Positions 4,785 to 20,522 are shown, numbered from the stretch's first letter. The stretch is 32,000 nucleotides of DNA from an uncultured Clostridia bacterium (GCA_937886445.1 CALGBY010000022.1:15845-47844); one strand, 5' to 3'. Numbers and translations: made by a program. The notes: generated by a model not told the origin, from the sequence alone.

Positions 4785-5815
4785 TGAAAAATGATGACAA
4801 TCGTCAATCAAATTTTGACTGCCTTAGATTGGTGTGTATGGTGATGGTAGTGTCCATGCACTACTTTGGATGGGGCGGACTTAATAGTTCAACAGAAACA
4901 AGTCGAATGAACTTTGTTCTAGCCAGTGGTATCGGAGTGTATTGCAGAGTTGCTGTGAACTGTTTCTATATGATTACTGGATATTTTATTGTTCCTTGTT
5001 CTCAAGATATAGACTTTCGGAGAGCATCAAAAAAGGTTTTAGCGCAGTATAGCAAGTTGTGGGTATACTCGGTCCTTTTGTTTGTAGGTTGCTGTGCAAC
5101 TGGGATAGCGGAGTTTTCATGGGATGAACTGGTCCAATCATTTTTCCCTATTATGACAAATCAATGGTGGTTCATGACGATTTTCATGGCCCTTCTGTGC
5201 ATCAAGCCGTTTATCGGTAAGTTACGCTCTTTGTTGAATGACAAAGAATTGATAGCACTACTAGGGATTATTGCATTCTTTGATACTCTGCAAGCAATAG
5301 TTGGCCGCAATGCTTTTAGGGAACAAGGTACAGGGATTATGCATGCAGTCTTCATGCTTCTATTGGGTTATGGAGTAAAAAAGTTGCCTGTGCTTCAGCT
5401 GAGAAAATGGTGTTCTGCTGTGCTCTACTTTGGCATATGCTTGATTGCAGGCGTTTTTGCTTTGGTCGGAAGAAAATTCTTCCAAATGGATGATGCTGTT
5501 GTACTCTATTATAATTCTCCATTTATTGTGATAGCAGCAATTGGTTTCTTTAATTTATTCCGAACTTGGAATTGTTCATTTACCTGGACGACACGTATAG
5601 CACCTTATGTATTGGCTATTTATTTGATAAATGATCATCGCCTAATGGAGAAGAACTTTTATGAAAAAGTTTTACACTGTAGTAATTATTATGAAAGTGG
5701 AATGATGATTCTCCATTGGGCAGTCAGTGTACTCTTGTTTGTTGCTGGTGGTTTATTGATAGACTTTACTCTTGAAAAAATGAAGAGTTATTTGATGAAG
5801 GTATTTCTGAGGTGA
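4784..5815 (+). CDS. Acyltransferase family 3 membrane O-acyltransferase
   Basis: 343 aa and polytopic. The N-terminal NFDCLRLVCMVMVVSMHY motif is typical of acyltransferase_3 proteins. It has a 1-nt TAATG overlap with the upstream GT. Confidence 0.8.
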   Translation: MKNDDNRQSNFDCLRLVCMVMVVSMHYFGWGGLNSSTETSRMNFVLASGIGVYCRVAVNCFYMITGYFIVPCSQDIDFRRASKKVLAQYSKLWVYSVLLFVGCCATGIAEFSWDELVQSFFPIMTNQWWFMTIFMALLCIKPFIGKLRSLLNDKELIALLGIIAFFDTLQAIVGRNAFREQGTGIMHAVFMLLLGYGVKKLPVLQLRKWCSAVLYFGICLIAGVFALVGRKFFQMDDAVVLYYNSPFIVIAAIGFFNLFRTWNCSFTWTTRIAPYVLAIYLINDHRLMEKNFYEKVLHCSNYYESGMMILHWAVSVLLFVAGGLLIDFTLEKMKSYLMKVFLR

Positions 5816-7276: not shown

Positions 7277-8433
7277 AAATACTGCATGTTTGCTTGGGCT
7301 GCTTTTATATTGATAACTATTCCTATCAAGAGAATATGCTTCCAAAGTTCCATAAGAATATGGGATATGATGTGGAAGTAATAGCTTCTACTCTATCTTT
7401 TGATGAGCATGGTAATGGATGCAATATTGCCTCCCGTATTTATGACAACGAATATGGAATTAAGGTTACTCGACTGCCTTATAGGAAGAGTATGCCTAAT
7501 AAAGTAGGCAAGTTCTTGAGATTATATGAAGGTTTTGAGGAGGCGCTGGTCAAGGCAGAACCAAACATAATATTTGTTCATGGCTGTCAGTTTTGCGACA
7601 TCGGTAAGATTGTTAAGTATGCTAAAGTGCACAAAGTAGTTATCTATGTTGACAATCATGCGGATTTCTCAAACAGTGCGACAAACTGGCTATCGAAGCA
7701 TGTTCTTCACAAGGGCCTTTGGAGAAAGTGCGCCCAAAGTATTGAGCCATATACTAAGAAGTTTTATGGAGTGCTTCCAGTTCGAGTGGATTTCCTTAAG
7801 AATATTTATAAATTGCCCCCCGATAAATGTGAGCTTTTGGTGATGGGAGCAGATGATGAACTTGTTCAAAAAGCCAAATCTTCGGATGCACGGAAGAGAA
7901 TCAGAGAACAGTATGGGATTAGTGAGGATAATTTTCTTATCCTCACTGGCGGTAAAATAGATCAATGGAAGACCCAGACATTATTGCTGATGCAGGCAGT
8001 TCAGAATATTCAGAATGAACGCCTTCGTCTCATTGTCTTTGGATCAGTCACGCAAGAACTCACGGATCAAATAAAGGCACTGGCAGATGGCATTAAGACC
8101 CAATATATTGGCTGGATTCAATCGAAATGCTCGTATGAATTTTTTGAAGCTGCCGATCTTGTCGTTTTTCCCGGTCGGCATAGTGTGATGTGGGAACAGG
8201 TTGTCGGCCAAGGTAAACCAATGATTGTAAAGGATTGGCCTGGAACACACCATGTGGATCTCGGAGGTAATGTGAGATTCTTGACGAAAGATAGCATTGA
8301 AGAAATTCAAGCCGAGATCGAGTTTATGCTGCATAATCCGAAAGAGTACAGGGTAATGAGAGAGGTAGCAGAAGAAAAAGGCGCTAAGGAGTTTTCGTAT
8401 GAAGATATTTCAAGAAGAGCGATCGAGCAATAG
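7273..8433 (+). CDS. Glycosyltransferase, GT-B fold (GT1/GT4-like)
   Basis: 386 aa with an ATGA overlap with the upstream gene. It has N-terminal MKILHVC... and a C-terminal nucleotide-sugar-binding half. The family call is by general pattern only. Confidence 0.7.
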   Translation: MKILHVCLGCFYIDNYSYQENMLPKFHKNMGYDVEVIASTLSFDEHGNGCNIASRIYDNEYGIKVTRLPYRKSMPNKVGKFLRLYEGFEEALVKAEPNIIFVHGCQFCDIGKIVKYAKVHKVVIYVDNHADFSNSATNWLSKHVLHKGLWRKCAQSIEPYTKKFYGVLPVRVDFLKNIYKLPPDKCELLVMGADDELVQKAKSSDARKRIREQYGISEDNFLILTGGKIDQWKTQTLLLMQAVQNIQNERLRLIVFGSVTQELTDQIKALADGIKTQYIGWIQSKCSYEFFEAADLVVFPGRHSVMWEQVVGQGKPMIVKDWPGTHHVDLGGNVRFLTKDSIEEIQAEIEFMLHNPKEYRVMREVAEEKGAKEFSYEDISRRAIEQ

Positions 8434-9646: not shown

Positions 9647-10741
9647 ATGAATGAGAAAAATAGACCGAGAACAAGACAATCAAATTTGGAACTTTTACGA
9701 ATTATCGCCATGTGTATGGTTGTTGTAATGCATGCTCTCGGACACGGAGAGGCATTAGGAAAAACAAGTTTTGGAAGTATACAGTATATTTTACTATGGA
9801 TGATAAGTACACTTTGCCAAGTGGCAGTTCCTTGTTTTGTCTTGATAAGCGGATACTTTCTATGCAAGTCCGATTTCAAGCCTTCGAGGATAGTACGACT
9901 AGTAATACAAGTACTTTTTTATACCATAATTTTATTATTAGTAAGGATATTGTTTATTGATAAATCGGTTTCTACTACAGATATTCTCCATGCATTTTTT
10001 CCAATAACAAGTGGAGAATACTGGTTTATAACACAATATTGTCTTTTGTTATTAATATCACCGCTGCTGAATCGTATAATAAACACCATTTCGAAAAAGG
10101 AATATAAATTTTTGTTAATCGGATTAACTGTCACGTTTAGCATTATCCCAACTTTCCTATTTTGGGCAAAAGACAATTTTAGCGATGGTTATAATCTTCC
10201 ATGGTTTACTTTATTATATTTTCTGGCGGGGTATATAAGACTTTATGGTACAAAAATTCGTCATGGGATGAGTATATACTTCCTGTCTTCGGTTATATGT
10301 GTTGGCAGCCGACTTGTGATTGGATCAATCGCATATAGAATTACTGGATCATATACAGGAGCAGGATTGTTATATAATGGAAATTCGATACTCATATTGA
10401 TTTCTTCTATCTCACTATTTTCTGTTTTCTTGAAATTAAATATTCATCGAGAAAGAATTGCAGCTATGATTAATACCATAGGCTCTTGTGTAATTGGTGT
10501 GTATCTTCTTCACAATAATACAGCGATAAGAACGGAACTATGGAAATTGATAGATCCTGCTAAATATATTGATGGTAGTATTGTTGTGGAAATTCTGTGG
10601 GTTCTATTAGGATCACTAGTCATTTTTTGTGTAGGTGTATTTGTTGAGTGGCTGCGAAGTTTATTGATGAAAGTTCTAAAAGAACAACGTATGATGGAGA
10701 AGATAGATGAGAAAGGCGCAGTGTACTATGGAAAACATTGA
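9647..10741 (+). CDS. Acyltransferase family 3 membrane O-acyltransferase (second copy)
   Basis: 364 aa and polytopic. N-terminal SNLELLRIIAMCMVVVMH is the canonical acyltransferase_3 signature. Confidence 0.8.
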   Translation: MNEKNRPRTRQSNLELLRIIAMCMVVVMHALGHGEALGKTSFGSIQYILLWMISTLCQVAVPCFVLISGYFLCKSDFKPSRIVRLVIQVLFYTIILLLVRILFIDKSVSTTDILHAFFPITSGEYWFITQYCLLLLISPLLNRIINTISKKEYKFLLIGLTVTFSIIPTFLFWAKDNFSDGYNLPWFTLLYFLAGYIRLYGTKIRHGMSIYFLSSVICVGSRLVIGSIAYRITGSYTGAGLLYNGNSILILISSISLFSVFLKLNIHRERIAAMINTIGSCVIGVYLLHNNTAIRTELWKLIDPAKYIDGSIVVEILWVLLGSLVIFCVGVFVEWLRSLLMKVLKEQRMMEKIDEKGAVYYGKH

Positions 10742-11122: not shown

Positions 11123-12577
11123 ATGCGTCAGAGGTGTAGAGTGGACAAGCGACTAGGAAAAAATATAATTCTCAATGTTGGGTATAACATTTTGTCTATA
11201 ATTGTCCCATTTATAACTGCTCCCTATTTGGGAAGAGTTTTGGGAACTGAGAATATTGGTGAATATACATATGTGTATTCTGTGGCCTCGTATTTTGTAA
11301 TGTTTGGCCTGTTAGGAATTAGTAATTATGGAACTAGGGAGATTGCTAGAGTTAGGGATAATCGAGTAAAACGCAGCAAAACTTTCTGGGAAGTATATTG
11401 TATGCAACTAATGACGGGCGTCATCGCATTACTTTGCTATTTTGTGTATGAAAGCATGATAAAGCATAACAATGGAATTGGTTGTTATATCATGGCGTTC
11501 TATGTTGCAACATCTGTGTTAGATTGTACCTGGTACTGTTCCGGCGTAGAAAAGTTTAAGAATATAGTTGGCAGAAACGTAATTATTAAGCTAAGTAACC
11601 TTGTGTGTGTTTTCGCCTTCATTCACCAGCCAGATGATTTGAATATTTATTTTTTCGTCATGGCTTTAAGTTATTTCTTTAGCGCACTTATCCTTTGGCC
11701 CACTATTTTGAAGGAAGTTGATCATTATAAACCGGATTGGAAATCGATAATAAGGCATTTTAAGCCCAATGTATATTTGTTTATTCCTGCAATTGCAGCA
11801 AGCATCTATCAAATAATGGATAAAGTTATGATCGGTGCAATTGCAAACAAGTCTCAATTAGCATACTATGAGTATGCGGATAAGATTCTTAATATACCCA
11901 ATATTGTGTTTGGTGCTATTGGTGCTGTAATGCTTTCAAGAATGACAAATGTATTGGAACATGGTCAGTCTGAATATAAGAGTTTGATTAGCTACTCAGT
12001 GGACTTATCAATGATTATTTCTGTTGGATTTACTTTCGGAGTATTCGCAATTAGTGATGAGTTGGTGGCTGTGTACTACGGCGCAGATTATATTGAATCG
12101 GGTTCGATACTAAAGGTTCTATGTCCAACAGTAATTTTCTATGGGTGGAACAATGTAATACGTATGCAATATATAATTCCGAACAACCTTAATTCAGTAT
12201 ATATTACATCAACTATTGCTGGAGCAATTGTCAATCTATTATTGAACTGGTTTTTCATCCCTCGATATTCTGCTCTTGGAGCAACAATCGGAACGATAGC
12301 TGCACAGGTTACCATTTTGTTGATTTATACGATGAAAATAAAAAAGTCGCTTCCATTTACAGAATATCTTCGGAAAAATGTGTTTTTGTTTGTTAATGGA
12401 TTAATAATGTGCACCGTTGTCATTCTGCTTCAACAGACACATCCTGCAACAGTAAAAGGATTAATTCTCGACGTTGTTGTTGGAATAGGGGTTTATTTTG
12501 CTTTATGTTTTACATACGGATTAACAAACAGGCAACATTTGATAAACCAAATTGTCAGATATCTAATTAGGAGGTAG
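11123..12577 (+). CDS. wzx: Wzx-type polysaccharide flippase (MOP superfamily)
   Basis: 484 aa with about 12-14 TM helices and N-terminal KNIILNVGYNILSIIVPFITAPYLGRVLGTENIG, typical of polysaccharide biosynthesis/Wzx proteins. The true start may be GTG at 11150. Confidence 0.85.
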   Translation: MRQRCRVDKRLGKNIILNVGYNILSIIVPFITAPYLGRVLGTENIGEYTYVYSVASYFVMFGLLGISNYGTREIARVRDNRVKRSKTFWEVYCMQLMTGVIALLCYFVYESMIKHNNGIGCYIMAFYVATSVLDCTWYCSGVEKFKNIVGRNVIIKLSNLVCVFAFIHQPDDLNIYFFVMALSYFFSALILWPTILKEVDHYKPDWKSIIRHFKPNVYLFIPAIAASIYQIMDKVMIGAIANKSQLAYYEYADKILNIPNIVFGAIGAVMLSRMTNVLEHGQSEYKSLISYSVDLSMIISVGFTFGVFAISDELVAVYYGADYIESGSILKVLCPTVIFYGWNNVIRMQYIIPNNLNSVYITSTIAGAIVNLLLNWFFIPRYSALGATIGTIAAQVTILLIYTMKIKKSLPFTEYLRKNVFLFVNGLIMCTVVILLQQTHPATVKGLILDVVVGIGVYFALCFTYGLTNRQHLINQIVRYLIRR

Positions 12578-13406: not shown

Positions 13407-13561
13407 AGTGTTAGGAGAGAATCGGAGATATGGAAAGTTATGAGATGGTACAGACTAGCTATATAGGAATCATAAAGTAGACTTGTGTGCGAACATGTAC
13501 ATTGCTGTCGCTGATGGATTATTGGGTCGAATATATTTTGGCTGGAAAATGGAGAATCAAA

Positions 13562-14008
13562 ATGAAAATCGTAGTTGCAGGTACCGGATATGTAGGACTA
13601 TCACTGGCGGTTCTTCTATCCCAACATAATGAGGTCATCGCAGTAGACATTGTTCCAGAAAAGGTTGATAAGATTAACAAGTAGCAAAGTCCAAACTCTT
13701 TGTGGAACGTTGAGAACGAGTGCTCGATTACCGTCGGTGTTTATCGCTTAACTATGAAGGCCAACTCCGATAACTTCCGTCAGAGCAGCATACAAGGCGT
13801 AATGAAGCGCATAAAGGCCAAAGGGGCAACTGTCATAATCTATGAGCCCACGCTTCCAACTGGCTCCACCTTCTTCGAATCTCTTGTCGTGAACAACATT
13901 GAGAGGTTCAAGAAGAGTTGTGATACGATTATTGTGAATCGGTATGATACCGTTCTCGATAATGTAGAAACCAAAGTTTATACAAGAGACCTGTTTAGGA
14001 GAGACTAA
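13562..14008 (+). pseudogene. ugd: UDP-glucose 6-dehydrogenase relic (internal in-frame deletion plus nonsense codon)
   Basis: The N-terminus [40 protein letters not shown] (GxGxxG Rossmann) ends at TAG 13682-13684. The same frame then continues ...QSP... directly into the extreme C-terminal domain ([30 protein letters not shown]...VYTRDLF). That leaves about 149 codons against about 390 for intact Ugd. Confidence 0.8.
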
Positions 14009-14034: not shown

Positions 14035-15081
14035 ATGAGCGCATTTAGCGGGGCAACATTAATGATTACTGGTGGTACCGGTTCCTTTGGTAATACTGTA
14101 CTCAAACACTTTCTGGATACAGATATTGGCCAGATTCGAATCTTCTCACGTGACGAGAAGAAGCAAGATGACATGCGTCATCTGCTTCAGGCTACGCATC
14201 CGGATACCGCGAAGAAGGTCAAGTTCTTTGTCGGCGATGTCCGTGATCCACGCTCTATTTCTGATGCAATGCCGGGGGTTGACTACATTTTCCATGCTGC
14301 TGCACTAAAGCAGGTCCCGTCGTGTGAATTCTTCCCGATGCAGGCAGTAAAAACCAACGTTGAGGGCACGGACAACATGCTGCATGCTGCCATTGAGAAC
14401 AAGGTAAAGCGCGTTGTGTGCTTGTCTACCGATAAAGCTGCGTATCCGATCAATGCGATGGGTATTTCCAAGGCCATGATGGAGCACGTTATCTATGCCA
14501 ATGCCCGTGTGGCTGCTGAGCGCGGTGATACCACTATCTGCTGTACCCGCTATGGCAACGTGATGTGCAGCCGTGGTAGCGTTATCCCGCTGTTCATTGA
14601 TCAGATCCACGCTGGTAACCCGATTACCATTACAAATCCCAATATGACTCGCTTCTTGATGAACCTGGATGAGGCTGTAGATTTGGTCAAGTTTGCATTC
14701 GAGCATGCGAATCCGGGTGACCTGTTCATTCAGAAGGCAGATGCGAGCACAATCGGTGATTTGGCGAAAGCTGTGCAGCAACTCTTTGGTGATACCGGCA
14801 CCAATATTATTGGCACACGTCATGGTGAGAAACTCTACGAGACCTTGATGACCAAGGAAGAGAGACTTCGTTCTGAGGATATGGGCGGTTACTATCGCGT
14901 GGCAGCTGACAGCCGCGACCTGAACTATGATAAGTTTGTGGTCAGAGGTGAAGTTCATACCGAGTCTGATGAGGCGTACACTTCACATAATACCGAGCGC
15001 CTAGATGTCGAGGAAACTGTGAAGAAAATTCTTACAACCGAGTATGTGCAGGAAGAACTGAAGGGTATTCGGCATAATTAA
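14035..15081 (+). CDS. fnlA: UDP-N-acetylglucosamine 4,6-dehydratase/5-epimerase (FnlA/CapE/WbjB type)
   Basis: GGAGGT RBS. Motifs ITGGTGSFGN, IRIFSRDEKKQDDMR and AALKQVPSCEFFPMQAVKTNV. 348 aa. It is co-located with CapF- and CapG-type genes. Confidence 0.85.
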   Translation: MSAFSGATLMITGGTGSFGNTVLKHFLDTDIGQIRIFSRDEKKQDDMRHLLQATHPDTAKKVKFFVGDVRDPRSISDAMPGVDYIFHAAALKQVPSCEFFPMQAVKTNVEGTDNMLHAAIENKVKRVVCLSTDKAAYPINAMGISKAMMEHVIYANARVAAERGDTTICCTRYGNVMCSRGSVIPLFIDQIHAGNPITITNPNMTRFLMNLDEAVDLVKFAFEHANPGDLFIQKADASTIGDLAKAVQQLFGDTGTNIIGTRHGEKLYETLMTKEERLRSEDMGGYYRVAADSRDLNYDKFVVRGEVHTESDEAYTSHNTERLDVEETVKKILTTEYVQEELKGIRHN

Positions 15082-15300
15082 GCCCTTTCTGATCTGCCTA
15101 GTAAGCTTTCTTGCTTTGGCTACGAATGCTAAATTTACGCGCAAAAACAAACGTGGATCATTTGTTCTTAAATGGAATCCTCAGAAAGTGAAGTGCAGAA
15201 TGTTTACTTCGATAGCATTACTATTGGTGGGCACGGGGATCAATGGGCGTATTTGTTACATGATAGCGATCAAGAAAGACGAACCGCAGAAATGATATAG

Positions 15301-15425
15301 GGATTGTACCCGCAGGGCTTAACCCTGGTACGTCCACCACAAGCCCGGAGAAATCCGGGTATTGCCGCACTGAACCTAACAACCTCCACGTGGTGTGCGG
15401 TGGGCAGGATGTGATAATTATCCTG
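15301..15425. other. Cluster of four adjacent stem-loops (candidate structured RNA or mobile-element remnant)
   Basis: Hairpin A, 15301-15335: GGAT/GTAC/CAGGG arms. Hairpin B, 15344-15359: CCCGGA-GAAA-TCCGGG, a GNRA tetraloop on the + strand. Hairpin C, 15365-15400: CCGCAC...GTGCGG enclosing the palindrome CCACGTGG. Hairpin D, 15405-15425: CAGGAT-9nt-ATCCTG. There is no convincing ORF. The element lies inside a ~400-bp insert between fnlA and the fnlB relic. Confidence 0.3.
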
Positions 15426-15483
15426 GCTAATCGTTAGTGGTTTGAAAATGTACATTTATTGCTAAAGTCAGTAGAATGTACAT

Positions 15484-15725
15484 ATGAATATATTGGTAGC
15501 TAGTGCGAAGGGAATGATTGGAACTGCCTTGGTAAACAACCTAAAAAATGTTTGTGAAAACAAAAAATACTAGTCTGAATATCCAGATCAATGAGATTTA
15601 CGAGTATGATATCAATAACACAATTTGAACTAGGTTTTATTGCCCCATGGCTTATTTCATTTTCAATCTCAATGGCGAGAATCAACCAAGGAGAATAAAA
15701 GACTGGCAGCTATGCCTTTGCAGTG
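15484..15725 (+). pseudogene. fnlB: Decayed 5' fragment of a second fnlB/capF allele
   Basis: MNILVASAKGMIGTALVNNLKN matches 19 of 22 residues of the intact FnlB N-terminus (MNILVTGAKGMCGTALVNNLKN). TAG falls at codon 30 (15571-15573). EIYEYDINNT (10/10 identical) follows in a +1-shifted frame from 15593, then AYFIFNLNGENQP (compare ADFVFNLAGVNRP) and GSYAFA (compare GNFGFA) in further shifted frames. Confidence 0.75.
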
Positions 15726-15823
15726 TCGAATAGAGCATCTGCCACGCTACGTGGATGCCGAAGCAGGAACAGCATCAATAACAGAGAATATCAGTAAAGA
15801 TATATGAACGGAGGTAAAGCAAA

Positions 15824-17005
15824 ATGTCTTTTACATGGAAGAATAACGGAGCAATCAAGTGCATGATCGTGTGCGGAACGCGCCCGGAAATCATACGGCT
15901 GGCTGCGGTGATCAAGCGCTGCCGGGAGTATTTTGATACCTGCGTGGTTTATACAAACCAGAACTGGGATAAGAACCTTTCTACCGTGTTCTGGCAGGAT
16001 TTTGAGCTGCGCAATGAGACGGGTGAGTTTGGCCCTGATATTCTGCTGCATGTGGTGGGCAAGCATCTGGGCGAGACCTGTGGCAACATTCTTGCGCAGA
16101 CCTATGAGCTGATGGCGGATCTGATGCCGGATGCCGTGTTGGTGTTGGGCGATACCAACAGCTGCCTGAGCGCCATATCAGCCAAGCGCCTGCATATCCC
16201 CATCTTCCATATGGAAGCCGGTAACCGTTGCAAGGATGAGTGCCTACCGGAAGAGACTAACCGCCGCATTGTAGACGTGATATCCGATGTGAACCTGTGC
16301 TACTCCGAGTTTGCCCGCAAGTATCTGGCGGATACGGGGCTGCCTAAGGAGCGTACCTACCAGACCGGTTCTCCTATGGCGGAAGTGCTGCGGATGAATC
16401 TGGAAAAGATAGAGGCTTCTGATGTACTGGAACGCATGGGACTGGAGCCTAATAAGTATATCCTGCTTTCCGCTCACCGCGAAGAGAACATCGATACAGA
16501 GAAGAACTTTACTTCTCTGTTTACCGCCATCAATGCGCTGGCTGAAAAGTATGATATGCCCATCCTGTACTCCTGCCATCCGCGTTCCAGAAACCGTTTG
16601 GAAAAGAGCGGCTTCAAGCTGGATCCCCGTGTGCGCGTGAATGAGCCGCTGGGCTTTAATGATTACAACAAGCTGCAGATGAACGCCTTGGCTATTGTTT
16701 CCGATTCCGGCACACTGCCCGAAGAAAGCAGCTTCTATCTCTCCATCGGTCATCCCATTGCCGCTGTATGCATCCGCACCTCCACCGAGCGGCCGGAAGC
16801 GCTGGAGGCCGGTGACTTCGTTCTGGCCGGTATCGGCACAGAGGAATTGCTGCAGGCAACTGATATGGCAATCGATATGAAGCAGAAAGGTATTCTTGGC
16901 AAGCCCTGCCCGGATTATACCGATGAAAACGTATCCATGAAGGTGGTACGTATCATTCAGGGCTATGTGAACGTGGTAAACAAAATGGTGTGGAGGAAGT
17001 ATTGA
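15824..17005 (+). CDS. fnlC: UDP-2-acetamido-2,6-dideoxy-L-talose 2-epimerase (FnlC/CapG, non-hydrolysing UDP-GlcNAc 2-epimerase family)
   Basis: GGAGGT RBS. Motifs CGTRPEIIRLAAVIK and HMEAGNRC....PEE.NR, with the typical 2-epimerase length (393 aa). It is adjacent to fnlA and fnlB. Confidence 0.85.
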   Translation: MSFTWKNNGAIKCMIVCGTRPEIIRLAAVIKRCREYFDTCVVYTNQNWDKNLSTVFWQDFELRNETGEFGPDILLHVVGKHLGETCGNILAQTYELMADLMPDAVLVLGDTNSCLSAISAKRLHIPIFHMEAGNRCKDECLPEETNRRIVDVISDVNLCYSEFARKYLADTGLPKERTYQTGSPMAEVLRMNLEKIEASDVLERMGLEPNKYILLSAHREENIDTEKNFTSLFTAINALAEKYDMPILYSCHPRSRNRLEKSGFKLDPRVRVNEPLGFNDYNKLQMNALAIVSDSGTLPEESSFYLSIGHPIAAVCIRTSTERPEALEAGDFVLAGIGTEELLQATDMAIDMKQKGILGKPCPDYTDENVSMKVVRIIQGYVNVVNKMVWRKY

Positions 17006-18198
17006 TGAATATTCTGGTAACCGGCGCGAAGGGCATGTGCGGAACTGCTCTGGTAAACAACCTGAAGAATATCCGTGATAACAAGAACCGCACCCGCCCG
17101 GGCATAAAGATAGATGAGATCTATGAGTATGATATCAATAATACGCCGGAGCAGCTGGACGCGTTTTGCAGCAAGGCGGATTTTGTGTTCAATCTGGCTG
17201 GCGTGAACCGCCCCACTGATCCTGAGGACTTTAAAAAAGGCAACTTCGGCTTTGCCTCCACGCTGCTTGATACCCTCAAAAAGCACGGCAGCAAGGCTCC
17301 GGTGATGCTGTCTTCATCCATTCAGGCTACGCTGATCGGCCGCTATGACAGCGATTACGGCAGAAGCAAGCTGGCCGGTGAGGAACTGTTTTTTGACTAT
17401 GCCAGAGAAACAGGTGTGAAGGTGGCGGTCTACCGCTTTCCCAACCTGATGGGCCATAGCCGCCCGAAATACAATTCTGCCGTATCCACCTTCTGCTGGG
17501 CTGTGGCAAATAATGAACCCTTTACCGTGAATGACCGGAATGCCATGGTGGAGCTGCTGTACATTGATGATCTGGTGGAGGGCATGTTTGATCTGCTGGA
17601 GGGCAGGGAACAGCACTGCGAGTATGATGGCCTGCAGCCTGTAATGAAGAGCGATGGCCACTACTGTATTGTGCCGGTTACGCATAAGGTAAGCCTGGGC
17701 GAGATCGTGGACCTGCTGGAGCAGTTCAAGCAGCAGCCGGTATCCCTCATGATGCCCCCAATGCCCGAAGGTAGCTTTGCCAAAAAGCTGTTCTCCCTGT
17801 ACCTTTCCTACCTGCCCGCGGAAGCGATCAAGTACACCATGAAGATGAATTGCGATGCCCGCGGAAGCTTTACCGAGCTGGTACATACCAAGGACTGCGG
17901 ACAGGTATCCATCAACATCAGCAAACCGGGCATCACTAAAGGCCAGCATTGGCATAACAGCAAGTGGGAGCAGTTCATTGTGGTGCATGGCCACGGCTTG
18001 ATACAGGAACGCAACATCAACACCAATGAAACGGTGGAGTTTGAGGTGTCCGGTGACAAGATAGAAGCCATTTACATGATCCCCGGCTGGACGCACAATA
18101 TCATCAACCTGAGCGATACAGAGGATCTGGTAACGGTGATGACCTGCAACGAGATTTTTGATCCCGCTCATCCCGATACCTTTGGGGAGCCGGTATGA
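17005..18198 (+). CDS. fnlB: Bifunctional SDR reductase/cupin protein (FnlB/CapF type)
   Basis: ATG 17005 overlaps the fnlC TGA by 1 nt, with GGAGGAAG RBS at 16992-16999. N-terminal SDR domain (ILVTGAKGMCG) and C-terminal cupin (DARGSFTEL...GITKGQHWHNSKWEQFIVVHG). The ORF-track start at 16990 (GTG) is less likely. Confidence 0.85.
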   Translation: MNILVTGAKGMCGTALVNNLKNIRDNKNRTRPGIKIDEIYEYDINNTPEQLDAFCSKADFVFNLAGVNRPTDPEDFKKGNFGFASTLLDTLKKHGSKAPVMLSSSIQATLIGRYDSDYGRSKLAGEELFFDYARETGVKVAVYRFPNLMGHSRPKYNSAVSTFCWAVANNEPFTVNDRNAMVELLYIDDLVEGMFDLLEGREQHCEYDGLQPVMKSDGHYCIVPVTHKVSLGEIVDLLEQFKQQPVSLMMPPMPEGSFAKKLFSLYLSYLPAEAIKYTMKMNCDARGSFTELVHTKDCGQVSINISKPGITKGQHWHNSKWEQFIVVHGHGLIQERNINTNETVEFEVSGDKIEAIYMIPGWTHNIINLSDTEDLVTVMTCNEIFDPAHPDTFGEPV

Positions 18199-18411
18199 TG
18201 AGCGCAAAACAGTGATCAATGTTCCGGAAAGCGTTTGTGGGGTTGCGGCATCCGTTCAGTAAAGCGCGCGGTGACGGAACTAAAGCATCTGCAGCGGCGC
18301 GAGGCAGAGAAACATGAGAAAACCGATCTCGCGATGCAGTATATAAGGAAAGACGTACATATATCAGGATTAGTGTGATTTCAACCAACAACAGAAAGTG
18401 AGGCGCAGTCA

Positions 18412-19446
18412 ATGAATATTTTGGTTACCGGTGGTGCAGGATATATCGGCTCTCATACAATAGTGGAACTGATAAGCGCCGGACACGCTGTTGTGGTGGT
18501 TGATAATCTTGCTAATTCTTCAAAAGAATCGATCAGCAGAGTGGAAAAGATCACCGGTGAGCACATCCCTTTTTATCAGGTGGATATACGTGATAGAAAT
18601 GGTCTGGAGGGTGTATTTGCCCGGCATCACTTTGACTGCTGTATCCATTTTGCGGGGTTGAAGGCGGTAGGCGAATCCGTTGTTACGCCGTGGGAATACT
18701 ATGAAAATAATATCAATGGAACGCTTGTGCTGCTTGATGTAATGAGAAAGCACGGGTGTAAAAACATCATTTTCAGTTCATCTGCTACGGTTTACGGTGA
18801 TCCTGTGCTGATACCCATAATGGAAGAATGCCCAAAGGGCAAATGTACAAATCCGTACGGCTGGACAAAGTGGATGATAGAGCAGATCCTCATGGATATG
18901 CACACAGCGGATATAAAGAAAATGGATGCCCATCCGTGGAACATTGTGCTGCTTCGCTACTTTAATCCCATTGGTGCTCATGCATCCGGGCTGATAGGCG
19001 AAGACCCGAATGGCATTCCGCAAAACATAATGCCGTATATCACGCAGGTGGCAGTGGGAAAGCTGGAAAAGCTGCATGTATTTGGAAATGATTATGATAC
19101 TCCTGATGGCACAGGCGTTCGTGACTATATTCACGTTGTAGATCTTGCCCGGGGGCATGTGGCAGCCCTGAAGGCGATAGAAGCAAACTGCGGTGTGGAG
19201 ATATTCAACCTGGGAACCGGAAAAGGATACAGCGTGCTTGAAGTGGTACACGCATTTGAAAAGGCGACCGGTATGAAAGTGCCATATGTGATAGATGCAA
19301 GACGCGCAGGAGATATCGGGACCTGCTACTCGGCACCCGGTAAGGCAATGCATTATCTGGGATGGAAAGCAGAGTATGGCATAGAGGATATGTGCCGGGA
19401 TAGCTGGAACTGGCAAAGGAATAACCCGAACGGGTATAGGAAATAA
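18412..19446 (+). CDS. galE: UDP-glucose 4-epimerase
   Basis: MNILVTGGAGYIGSHT, the YxxxK context (NPYGWTKWMIEQIL) and the RDYIHVVDLA motif. 344 aa. Confidence 0.9.
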   Translation: MNILVTGGAGYIGSHTIVELISAGHAVVVVDNLANSSKESISRVEKITGEHIPFYQVDIRDRNGLEGVFARHHFDCCIHFAGLKAVGESVVTPWEYYENNINGTLVLLDVMRKHGCKNIIFSSSATVYGDPVLIPIMEECPKGKCTNPYGWTKWMIEQILMDMHTADIKKMDAHPWNIVLLRYFNPIGAHASGLIGEDPNGIPQNIMPYITQVAVGKLEKLHVFGNDYDTPDGTGVRDYIHVVDLARGHVAALKAIEANCGVEIFNLGTGKGYSVLEVVHAFEKATGMKVPYVIDARRAGDIGTCYSAPGKAMHYLGWKAEYGIEDMCRDSWNWQRNNPNGYRK

Positions 19447-19456
19447 ACCAACTGTG

Positions 19457-19577
19457 TGATCCCCGGATGGATGCACAGTATCATTGACCTGAGCGATACG
19501 GAGGATCCGGTGACGGTGATGACCTGCAGAGAGATGATTGATCCTGGCTATCCGGATACCTTTGGAGAGCCGGTATG
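19457..19577 (+). pseudogene. fnlB: Diverged duplicate of the last ~40 codons of fnlB (relic)
   Basis: Hand alignment of 19457-19579 against 18077-18199 is gap-free with 18 mismatches in 123 nt (~85% identity). It translates IPGWMHSIIDLSDTEDPVTVMTCREMIDPGYPDTFGEPV*, compared with IPGWTHNIINLSDTEDLVTVMTCNEIFDPAHPDTFGEPV*. There is no upstream coding continuation. Confidence 0.85.
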
Positions 19578-19641
19578 ATCACAAAGGAAACAAAGTAATT
19601 TCTGTACTGATCTGCAAATGCTGCGGAGATTGGAGGAGCAT

Positions 19642-20043
19642 ATGATGCGGCCTGAAACGCAGGAAATGAAACTGCGCATATGGGAAGAACGGGTGATCGA
19701 TTGCCGCAGCAGCGGTAAAAGCGTGAGAAACTGGTGCAAGGAGCACAATATTGACTATTCCACCTATTTCAGATGGGAAAAGCAGGTACTGGAAACAAGC
19801 ATGTCCAAAGCCGGCAATAAGGTGGCGTTTTTGGAGCAGGCATTAAGCAAGAAACAGAATGAAGCTGCAAAGATACTGGATGACACTATTGGTTCACCAG
19901 AAGGTGCGGATGATAAAAAAGAACATATGGTGAGCTTCCGCGCGAATGATATGGTGTTTTCGGTGCCAGAAAACGTGCCTACAGCATTTTTGACAAGATT
20001 ACTGGAGGCTGCTTCACAGGCAGACAGGCACACGGCCAAATGA
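19642..20043 (+). CDS. IS66-family TnpA (Orf1)-like HTH accessory protein, orphan
   Basis: GGAGGAG RBS at 19632-19638. N-terminal pattern ...CRSSGKSVRNWCKEHNIDYSTYFRWEKQV (HTH) and C-terminal ...MVSFRANDMVFSVPENVPTAFLTRLLEA, both typical of IS66 Orf1. No tnpB or tnpC follows. The stop overlaps the VanZ start (ATGA). Confidence 0.65.
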   Translation: MMRPETQEMKLRIWEERVIDCRSSGKSVRNWCKEHNIDYSTYFRWEKQVLETSMSKAGNKVAFLEQALSKKQNEAAKILDDTIGSPEGADDKKEHMVSFRANDMVFSVPENVPTAFLTRLLEAASQADRHTAK

Positions 20044-20522
20044 GGAAATGCATTGCCTTTATATTGCTGATTTGCTGCGCGGTATGCATATTGCTGTTTT
20101 CTATGCAGAACGCGGAAAAATCGGGCATAACATCCGGCAATGTAAGCAGGATCATCGCGAGAGTGATCACCCGCGGCTTTGATGAGCTATCCGCGCCGGA
20201 GCAGCAGCGGAGAATAGATGAGATCAACCCGTATGTGCGAAAAATGGCGCATTTTTGCGAGTTTGCACTGTTTGGCGCGTTGGCGGTGCTTTGCTTTTTC
20301 AAGGCGGAGCGCAGAAAAAGATCGCTGATCATCTCGCTGTGCGCGGGGGCGTTGCTGGCGGTATGCGATGAAACGCTGCAAACGAGTGTACCCGGCAGAT
20401 ATGGCAGCCCGGTGGATATGCTGATAGATACAGCCGGGGTGACCGCCGGAGCAATGCTGATCTGGATAGCCCTGAACCGTTCAAGCAAAAAAGGATCTAC
20501 CCCCTGCAAAGAAAAAGATTGA
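20040..20522 (+). CDS. VanZ-like family membrane protein
   Basis: 160 aa with 4 TM helices. Motifs FSMQNAEKSG..S, RKMAHFCEFALFGAL and DETLQ..VPGR.GS..D.LID..G are typical of VanZ-like proteins. Confidence 0.8.
   Translation: MRKCIAFILLICCAVCILLFSMQNAEKSGITSGNVSRIIARVITRGFDELSAPEQQRRIDEINPYVRKMAHFCEFALFGALAVLCFFKAERRKRSLIISLCAGALLAVCDETLQTSVPGRYGSPVDMLIDTAGVTAGAMLIWIALNRSSKKGSTPCKEKD

Follow-up and report, generated by a model that had tools for sequence, protein, structure and literature searches.

Two decayed fnlB remnants and a candidate HDV-like ribozyme in the polysaccharide locus of an uncultured Clostridia bacterium

The DNA examined here, called the window throughout, is a stretch of 32,000 nucleotides (nt) from an uncultured Clostridia bacterium (GCA_937886445.1, CALGBY010000022.1:15845-47844), and it carries a Wzx/Wzy-type polysaccharide locus in which two decayed fragments of the gene fnlB lie on either side of intact copies of fnlC, fnlB and galE. 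The source is a metagenome-assembled genome (MAG) of 143 contigs that is 89.5% complete and belongs to the same family as Candidatus Pullichristensenella. The left part of the locus holds Wzz-like and tyrosine-kinase-like genes, an initiating transferase, glycosyltransferases, acyltransferases, wzy and wzx, and the right part holds a deleted ugd, fnlA, a gap of 742 nt, fnlC, fnlB, a spacer, galE, the second fnlB fragment, a TnpA-like gene and vanZ (Table 1). The G+C content (GC) changes along this order, from 53-54% in the flanks to 38% in the variable core, 48.8% in fnlA, 52.3% in fnlC and fnlB, 47% in galE and 35.3% in the fnlB fragment that precedes fnlC. We refer to that fragment, which derives from the start of the gene, as the 5′ relic, and to the fragment after galE, which derives from the end of the gene, as the 3′ relic.

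The fnlABC genes, or capEFG, encode the pathway to uridine diphosphate (UDP)-N-acetyl-L-fucosamine (UDP-L-FucNAc) in Pseudomonas aeruginosa O11 and in the cap5/8 loci of Staphylococcus aureus. As in those gene sets, three enzyme types are adjacent in the window: a 4,6-dehydratase/5-epimerase, a reductase that combines a short-chain dehydrogenase/reductase (SDR) domain with a cupin domain, and a 2-epimerase. The window differs in its gene order, which is fnlA-fnlC-fnlB (ACB, as opposed to ABC), and in that both of the relevant equivalog cut-offs are missed. FnlA has its best match to TIGR04130 with 485 bits against a cut-off of 730, and FnlB has its best family match to NF047837 (WbcJ) with 313 bits against a cut-off of 500. 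Because these NCBIfam cut-offs are missed, the exact sugar product is not certain, and the naming of FnlB rests on its SDR and cupin architecture (PF14667, 150 bits; PF01370, 79 bits) and on its fnlA and fnlC neighbours. With this limit, the identities that a first-pass annotation, made by a model from the sequence alone, had given to fnlA, fnlC, fnlB and galE hold by domain and NCBIfam matches. The start of fnlB overlaps the stop of fnlC by 1 nt, and galE is the second copy in the genome, the other lying on contig C70.

Table 1. Features of the right part of the locus, in window coordinates, and copies of the ribozyme candidate in other loci, in the coordinates of each numbered locus.
Feature	Position	Strand	Basis or remark
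ugd remnant	13551..14008	+	5′ start and last ~100 codons, middle deleted; context, another scar
fnlA, UDP-GlcNAc (UDP-N-acetylglucosamine) 4,6-dehydratase/5-epimerase-like	14035..15081	+	clade normally preceding fnlB
Spacer between fnlA and ribozyme candidate	15082..15363	.	no assignment
Candidate HDV-like (hepatitis delta virus-like) self-cleaving ribozyme, Faecalibacterium prausnitzii family	15364..15438	+	RF02682
fnlB 5′ relic, codons 1-84, decayed, AT-rich	15484..15721	+	tblastn and nucleotide alignment
fnlC, non-hydrolysing UDP-GlcNAc 2-epimerase type, intact	15824..17005	+	PF02350, 242 bits
fnlB, intact, SDR and C-terminal cupin-like domain	17005..18198	+	PF01370 and PF14667
Spacer/leader before galE	18199..18411	.	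about 212-213 nt
galE, UDP-glucose 4-epimerase	18412..19446	+	TIGR01179, 441 bits; flanked by both copies of the fnlB 3′ end
fnlB 3′ relic, last 40 codons and stop	19457..19578	+	gap-free; decay by substitutions only
Orphan IS66-family TnpA-like gene	19618..20043	+	NF047593, 41.6 bits against a cut-off of 28
Ribozyme candidates in other loci	L033:8454-8523; L050:10745-10814, 11874-11942; L054:8458-8527, 10288-10358; L061:11269-11338		RF02682 family
Ribozyme candidates in other loci	L118:12684-12752; L130:11233-11311; L132:6300-6369, 7427-7496; L160:8455-8525		RF02682 family
Ribozyme candidates in other loci	L162:8422-8491, 10001-10082; L164:8455-8524; L169:4038-4107, 5617-5698; L175:8455-8522; L176:8422-8491		RF02682 family

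The 5′ relic is recognised by a tblastn search of the window with the intact FnlB, which returns one piece at 15484-15564 (78% amino acid identity, residues 1-27) and a second at 15569-15709 (48%, residues 30-77) with a joint E value of 5e-14. A nucleotide alignment stretches the relic to 15721, so that it corresponds to nt 1-251 of fnlB, and a search of the whole genome with FnlB returned the identical relic pieces and no further fnlB. Relative to the intact gene, the relic carries insertions or deletions of −2, −7, +4, −9, −1 and +2 nt, five of which shift the frame, and an in-frame TAG at 15571-15573 (codon 30). Its GC is 35%, against 49% in the matching part of the intact gene. These results confirm the first-pass description of an AT-rich, decayed 5′ fragment of fnlB that contains a stop codon and frameshifts. 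For comparison we used FnlB as a query to collect 160 loci from species genomes and metagenomes, together with the loci of relatives (about 165 in all). The relic has approximately 72% identity to the resident fnlB, and the closest of 160 intact genes reaches 75%, so that it has no close parent among them; nor can it be assigned to a clade, as its mean identity is 66% to alleles from ABC loci and 67% to alleles from ACB loci.

The base composition of the 5′ relic also sets it apart from its neighbour. Across 113 loci the GC of fnlA and that of the 5′ region of fnlB are closely correlated (r = 0.91), and the relic falls 3.8-4.2 standard deviations under the value predicted from the adjacent fnlA. 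Because the 3′ relic has decayed with no AT bias, as described below, an AT-rich parent allele is a likelier source of the low GC of the 5′ relic than change in place. The stub may predate the neighbouring fnlA or be foreign to it. At this joint, homology to relatives stops at the gene ends, at 15077-15082 for fnlA and at 15829 for fnlC, and in comparisons with relatives there is nothing that indicates a homologous crossover. On this pattern the 5′ junction looks illegitimate, and the first-pass proposal that fnlB homology served as the anchor finds no support at the left joint.

The 3′ relic is better preserved. The sequence at 19457-19578 is 85% identical to 18077-18198 within the intact gene, aligns to it with no gaps, as the first-pass annotation had described, and includes the TGA stop and one base past it; by tblastn the relic, which corresponds to residues 358-397 of FnlB, is found at 19456-19575 with an E value of 1.8e-15. 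Both relics are genuine fnlB remnants, since the generic SDR protein GalE matches FnlB with an E value of only 1.7e-4 at 25% identity. Among the intact genes, the window's own fnlB is the nearest to the 3′ relic, with 84% identity over 120 nt compared with at most 80% for the 159 others. When the 19 differences between relic and intact gene are polarised by the 12 closest homologues, 16 are assigned to the relic branch, distributed 4:4:8 over the three codon positions, and three to the intact branch. Of the 10 amino acid replacements in the relic, eight affect positions that are conserved in 90% or more of the homologues, and seven of these eight introduce residues never seen there. Seven changes run from GC to AT and eight from AT to GC, so that the decay has no AT bias. 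In a maximum-likelihood tree the relic has a terminal branch of 0.18 compared with 0.037 for the intact fnlB. This tree of 120 nt does not resolve the two as strict sisters, and the approximately unbiased test does not reject that relation (p = 0.35). The 15% divergence appears to be mainly the decay of a copy of the resident fnlB, or of a very close allele, and not the signature of a distant donor. Because 16 of the 19 changes are derived in the relic and the nearest sequence is the resident gene, decay in place is sufficient and no second foreign fnlB donor is needed. The repeat is indeed not recent, as the first-pass annotation stated; its divergence does not serve as a sign of a foreign allele.

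Repeats of this kind could be produced by assembly or binning, with a strain chimera mis-joined at the repeat copies. The source is a fragmented and incomplete MAG, and in the protein collection the exact GalE occurs on one contig only. Yet the longest exact run common to the two copies of the fnlB 3′ end is 16 nt, and because of this the copies are too diverged for a k-mer assembly mis-join. Mis-joins also do not create frameshifted relics, and the architecture recurs in cultured bacteria: the isolate Anaerococcus tetradius ATCC 35098 has the same layout, and Catenibacterium mitsuokai DSM 15897 has a 5′ stub. We consider the chance of an artefact next to negligible.

The two fragments are non-overlapping ends of fnlB in the right order and orientation, as would be expected if a single old fnlB after fnlA had lost codons ~85-357 to fnlC-fnlB-galE in one insertion-deletion, leaving the relics as its ends. 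Their composition argues against this. In 160 intact fnlB genes the GC of the 5′ part is correlated with that of the 3′ part (r = 0.85), and on this relation the 5′ relic predicts a GC of 37% ± 3.5% for the other end of its gene; the value in the 3′ relic is 54%, or 4.8 standard deviations higher. The pair is off the correlation line, and therefore the relics are not two ends of one gene. Further, the 5′ relic is ~72% identical to the resident gene with six insertions or deletions, against 85% and none for the 3′ relic; the decay of the 3′ relic is unbiased; and no intact homologue among the 160 closely matches both relics. An origin in one gene is thus highly improbable. The first-pass annotation had read the different base compositions as evidence of at least two donors. 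Of this, the two separate events stand, supported by the offset from the GC line, and the second foreign fnlB donor becomes unnecessary, as the 3′ relic is nearest to the resident gene.

Which genes are resident can be approached through gene order. The first-pass annotation expected fnlB between fnlA and fnlC, which would make the window anomalous, but among the sampled loci, which are those most similar to the window, ACB is the commoner order, with 64 loci against 46 for ABC. FnlA forms two deep groups, 80-92% and ~64% identical to that of the window; fnlB is the next gene in 43 of 50 loci of the first group, and fnlC is always next in the second. In the FnlA tree the window lies in a starred set of six rows, made up of four ABC loci, one ACB locus and the window itself. 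In the FnlC tree its clade, likewise starred, comprises 47 ACB and seven ABC loci, and in the FnlB tree it groups with a genome of the same genus (G001) and with locus L023, both of ACB order. The order switches at least 5-7 times on each gene tree, and hybrids are therefore recurrent. One combination like that of the window is found in two metagenome contigs (L110 and L111), which share its pairing of fnlA and fnlC types, with an intact PglD-like acetyltransferase gene between the two and no relic.

This acetyltransferase (190 amino acids, PglD_N domain and hexapeptide repeats) regularly lies directly after alpha-type fnlA and before fnlB or fnlC. The slot is filled in L110 (4190-4762) and in 46 other loci, for example L033 (5416-5982) and L049 (789-1352), and the window has lost the gene. 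Its presence suggests, for those loci, a version of the pathway with an N-acetylated amino sugar.

Comparison with G001 gives a scale for descent within the genus. GyrA of the two genomes is 79.7% identical in amino acids and 76.7% in nucleotides, FnlC is 91% and ~80% identical, and FnlB is 84% and 76% identical, while FnlA has only 64% amino acid identity. The G001 locus reads fnlA (beta type)-fnlC-fnlB, has intergenic distances of about 10-70 nt, and contains no relic and no galE; its nucleotide identity to the window is only ~77%. Because fnlC-fnlB has a GC like that of the flanks and a distance to G001 like that of GyrA, we read it as resident, and because fnlA belongs to the clade that precedes fnlB and is only 64% identical to that of G001, we read it as incoming. 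On these comparisons, the evidence favours a resident fnlC-fnlB module next to a left side, consisting of fnlA, the spacer and the fnlB stub, that probably came from elsewhere.

The first-pass annotation had proposed the opposite direction, in which fnlC-fnlB and/or galE were delivered through fnlB sequence as a homology anchor and the relics are two different foreign or displaced alleles. The relics do bracket the fnlC-fnlB-galE block, their compositions differ, and the 3′ relic has about six third-position differences in excess, which would permit an allele slightly unlike the resident one. On the other side, fnlC-fnlB has the GC of the genome and the GyrA-like distance to the same-genus genome, and fnlA is the outlier; the resident fnlB is the nearest sequence to the 3′ relic, whose differences are mostly its own decay; and a donor of ACB order would have had no fnlB upstream of fnlC to anchor the left joint. 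Delivery of the block is unlikely on this evidence, although homology to fnlB could have been used in the event that brought in galE.

A duplication within the locus would also place a 5′ stub before fnlC, and would do so with no foreign DNA: a tandem fnlB-fnlC duplication followed by deletions would convert A-B-C-B-C into A-ΔB-C-B, and the family has seen several order switches. A stub of this origin would at first have had the sequence of the resident gene, yet it is 72% identical to it, as distant as unrelated alleles, and 14 GC points lower. FnlA and FnlC also belong to clades with different usual orders. We regard this origin as very unlikely.

We favour a locus that is a patchwork from at least two separate recombination events, one on the left and one on the right, with the relics as neutral debris, and we give this reading a probability of roughly 0.55. 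In agreement with it, the relics carry a stop, insertions and deletions, and changes at conserved sites, the clade switches between fnlA and fnlC, and the GC breaks at the relic sites. In the left event, a lineage that already had fnlC-fnlB, like its same-genus relative, would have exchanged its fnlA and everything leftward for a foreign stretch. The end of that stretch would have consisted of an fnlA of the type that precedes fnlB, a spacer with an HDV-like ribozyme, and the first ~250 nt of an AT-rich fnlB. Its right end would have joined with no homology ~100 nt upstream of fnlC, and the truncated fnlB, being redundant, would have decayed. The 5′ relic would then be the cut end of the cassette of fnlA, or of an older one.

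The right event would have placed galE and its leader directly after fnlB and duplicated the last 123 nt of fnlB. The closest GalE proteins elsewhere (91%, 85% and 83% identical) are encoded at the right edge of polysaccharide loci; vanZ directly follows in the two closest (91% and 85%), and no fnlB relic follows any of the three. In none of the loci examined is fnlB followed by a galE of the window type, and the leader shares only its last 36 nt with the leaders of related galE genes. In the window, direct repeats flank galE and its leader; the upstream copy completes fnlB, the downstream copy is 5′-truncated, and both end at the same base. In Campbell-type insertion-duplication, an insert comes to lie between direct repeats of the homology segment, of which one completes the gene and the other is 5′-truncated. 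A second process, homology-facilitated illegitimate recombination (HFIR), was reportedly described by de Vries and Wackernagel in 2002. The layout fnlB-galE-relic resembles the products of both processes. A single homologous crossover with a circle containing the fnlB 3′ end and galE could have produced it, and the same product would follow from a one-sided homologous invasion whose far end was joined illegitimately. In either case the upstream copy would have been kept in the working gene, while the downstream copy would have drifted by ~13% in substitutions. The window differs from laboratory Campbell-type constructs in that its repeats are natural and old and that the circle and the donor are hypothetical.

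The same layout recurs in A. tetradius ATCC 35098 (L096:6001-8060, NZ_GG666297.1), where a tagD-like cytidylyltransferase gene separates fnlB from a downstream copy of 140-145 nt of the fnlB 3′ end with 97-98% identity. This is a younger natural insertion-duplication in a cultured strain, parallel to that of the window. The repeats in the two loci start less than 20 nt apart (fnlB nt 1053 and 1072), in the most conserved stretch of the gene. The conserved 3′ end of fnlB may be a repeated landing site for the capture of single genes by integration of circles, with galE captured here and tagD in A. tetradius.

Several points weigh against our reading. The 5′ relic, which lacks a close parent and whose GC matches neither neighbour, may come from an older, third event and not from the cassette of fnlA. 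The polarising of third positions is noisy, as the outgroups are only 76% identical, and the excess third-position differences allow a parent allele about 5% off the resident gene. Genes of the fnlB family often move between gut Firmicutes, so that the GyrA-like identity to G001 agrees with vertical descent but falls short of proof. The locus sample, being the 80 best matches per collection to the window's FnlB, is biased, and the genome is a MAG. The relics, the clade of each gene, the breaks in composition, the direction of the substitutions and the parallel in A. tetradius are observed directly. The genome and metagenome scans yielded no sister strain and no pre-insertion state, the best FnlB being 86% identical, and for this reason we infer the order of the events, the incoming side and the circular intermediate.

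Other loci contain scars of their own, with fragments of fnl genes in about five loci beyond A. tetradius. In C. mitsuokai DSM 15897 (L049:1-7194) the order is fnlA, a pglD-like gene, an fnlB 5′ stub, a nucleoside triphosphate transferase gene, vanZ, an InsA-like insertion sequence remnant, fnlC and fnlB. The stub comprises codons 1-64 of fnlB with a stop and is unrelated in sequence to that of the window, and the whole looks like two polysaccharide loci fused end to end. Comparison of every locus with itself found short fnlA or fnlB fragments in about six loci. On one metagenome contig, fnlB is preceded by two 107-nt copies of an internal part of the gene (nt 403-509; L158:4457-4563 and 5028-5134), which match the resident gene with 82-85% identity. 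In two further loci (L058:2992-3046 and L152:2993-3045), a 53-55-nt copy of the 5′ end of fnlA, 94-100% identical, lies ~1.3 kb upstream of fnlA and mirrors the duplication of the fnlB 3′ end.

The gap between fnlA and fnlC holds a further element besides the 5′ relic. The interval 15290-15490 folds far better than shuffled versions of itself (z = −4.6), and within it the Rfam model RF02682 matches over its full length with 40.6 bits (E value 5.7e-6 for the whole genome), as a single copy. This score is 3.4 bits under the Rfam gathering threshold of 44, and at gathering thresholds the Rfam search of the window returned no match, the element surfacing in E-value mode only; it is accordingly a candidate. 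Among 150 other genomes of the host family no copy of the RF02682 type was found. A direct reading, together with the alignments, gives the nested double pseudoknot and core of this fold: P1 (GCCGCAC/GUGCGGU) with a G·U first pair, P2 (CUAAC/GUUAG), P3 (ACC/GGU) and P4 (CAGGAU/AUCCUG), with a GG after P1 available for P1.1 and a GGCUAA that contains the catalytic C position. A model built from 17 relatives scores the window candidate at 66 bits. Across 17 copies of the family 97.5% of cells are paired, and compensatory changes occur in seven pairs; for P2, covariation is not automatically countable, as the P2 of the window is shifted by one column in the model alignment.

The models find 18 further copies in 13 of ~165 loci, all on the coding strand (Table 1), and all 13 loci are of the type fnlA-pglD-fnlB-fnlC with an fnlA 87-89% identical to that of the window. 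As every other ribozyme-bearing locus is of this type, the ribozyme ties the left block of the window to that lineage. Most copies lie 36-40 nt past the stop of fnlC or ugd, sometimes with two per operon, and they typically lie 25-45 nt before genes for a glmM-like phosphohexomutase, an alpha/beta-hydrolase or a VanZ fusion. Four genomes with such loci have 1-4 copies each, most of them inside the fnl locus, and one has two more elsewhere on the same contig. In the window, the ATG of the fnlB stub follows the candidate at a distance of 46 nt.

According to PMC6765202, which cites Webb (2009) and Passalacqua (2017), drz-Fpra-1 is an HDV-like ribozyme of F. prausnitzii (RF02682) that is located upstream of glmM. 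The window candidate resembles it in the full-length match to the family model, in a P1 with a G·U at the predicted cleavage site, in P3, P4 and P2, and in the GGCUAA core, and its relatives in fnl loci often precede a glmM-like gene. It differs in that it precedes a dead fnlB stub and not glmM, falls below the Rfam threshold, and is the sole copy in its genome. An intact fold between decayed genes suggests that the candidate may still be under selection. It is possible, at somewhat less than even odds, that the gap is not all dead, that the ribozyme has been kept intact and cuts the operon transcript upstream of fnlC-fnlB, and that the family punctuates fnl-type operons of gut Clostridia at gene boundaries. 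If this were true, the family would have a wider role in operon processing, and the published glmM case would be a single example of it.

The remaining sequence was searched for further traces. DNA searches with the spacers at 15082-15483 and 18199-18411 gave nothing above chance in the own genome, in 300 family genomes or in the ~165 fnl loci. FnlC, Ugd, PGM and the hydrolase, which flank the ribozyme elsewhere, had no credible match in the spacer. A possible trace of the N-terminus of a PglD-like acetyltransferase at ~15215-15270, a profile match of 19 residues with 0.4-1.2 bits and an E value of ~0.02, is not significant and is not counted as a relic.

As a recombination scar, the arrangement is ordinary, since capsule loci are known mosaics in which gene stubs at joints are expected. 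The capsule (cps) loci of Streptococcus pneumoniae and its relatives are mosaic (Bentley et al., 2006; PMC1391919). Like them, the window carries a locus of Wzx/Wzy type in which the serotype-specific core is AT-rich, the genes of the sugar pathway are near the genomic GC and disrupted transposase genes lie at the edges (PMC1391919). Unlike them, it comes from a different phylum-level lineage, an uncultured gut Firmicute, its scars lie inside the L-FucNAc gene set, and it is known from sequence alone. The value of the scars is local, in that they date and order events in the capsule locus of an uncultured gut lineage. Beyond this, two gene orders of the L-FucNAc set are in circulation among gut Firmicutes and recombine with each other, and insertion-duplication at one and the same conserved gene end has two natural examples, in the window and in A. 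tetradius. Follow-up is worthwhile for the ribozyme and for the recurrence of insertion-duplication at the end of fnlB. Of the two subjects, scar and ribozyme, the latter is the more useful by-product, as the copies suggest that the HDV-like ribozyme family of F. prausnitzii is a recurrent inter-gene element of polysaccharide operons.

Two further features border the region. The orphan TnpA-like gene to the right of the 3′ relic overlaps the start of vanZ by 4 nt (19618-20522) and is followed by neither tnpB nor tnpC; no homologue of it lies within 6 kb of fnlB in the ~165 fnl loci. To the left of fnlA, the ugd remnant matches the NCBIfam UDP-glucose 6-dehydrogenase model over residues 298-388 only, and by blastn it matches both the 5′ and the 3′ ends of the full ugd of G001. 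Fragments of the 3′ end of ugd adjoin fnl genes in two other loci as well (L031 and L073).

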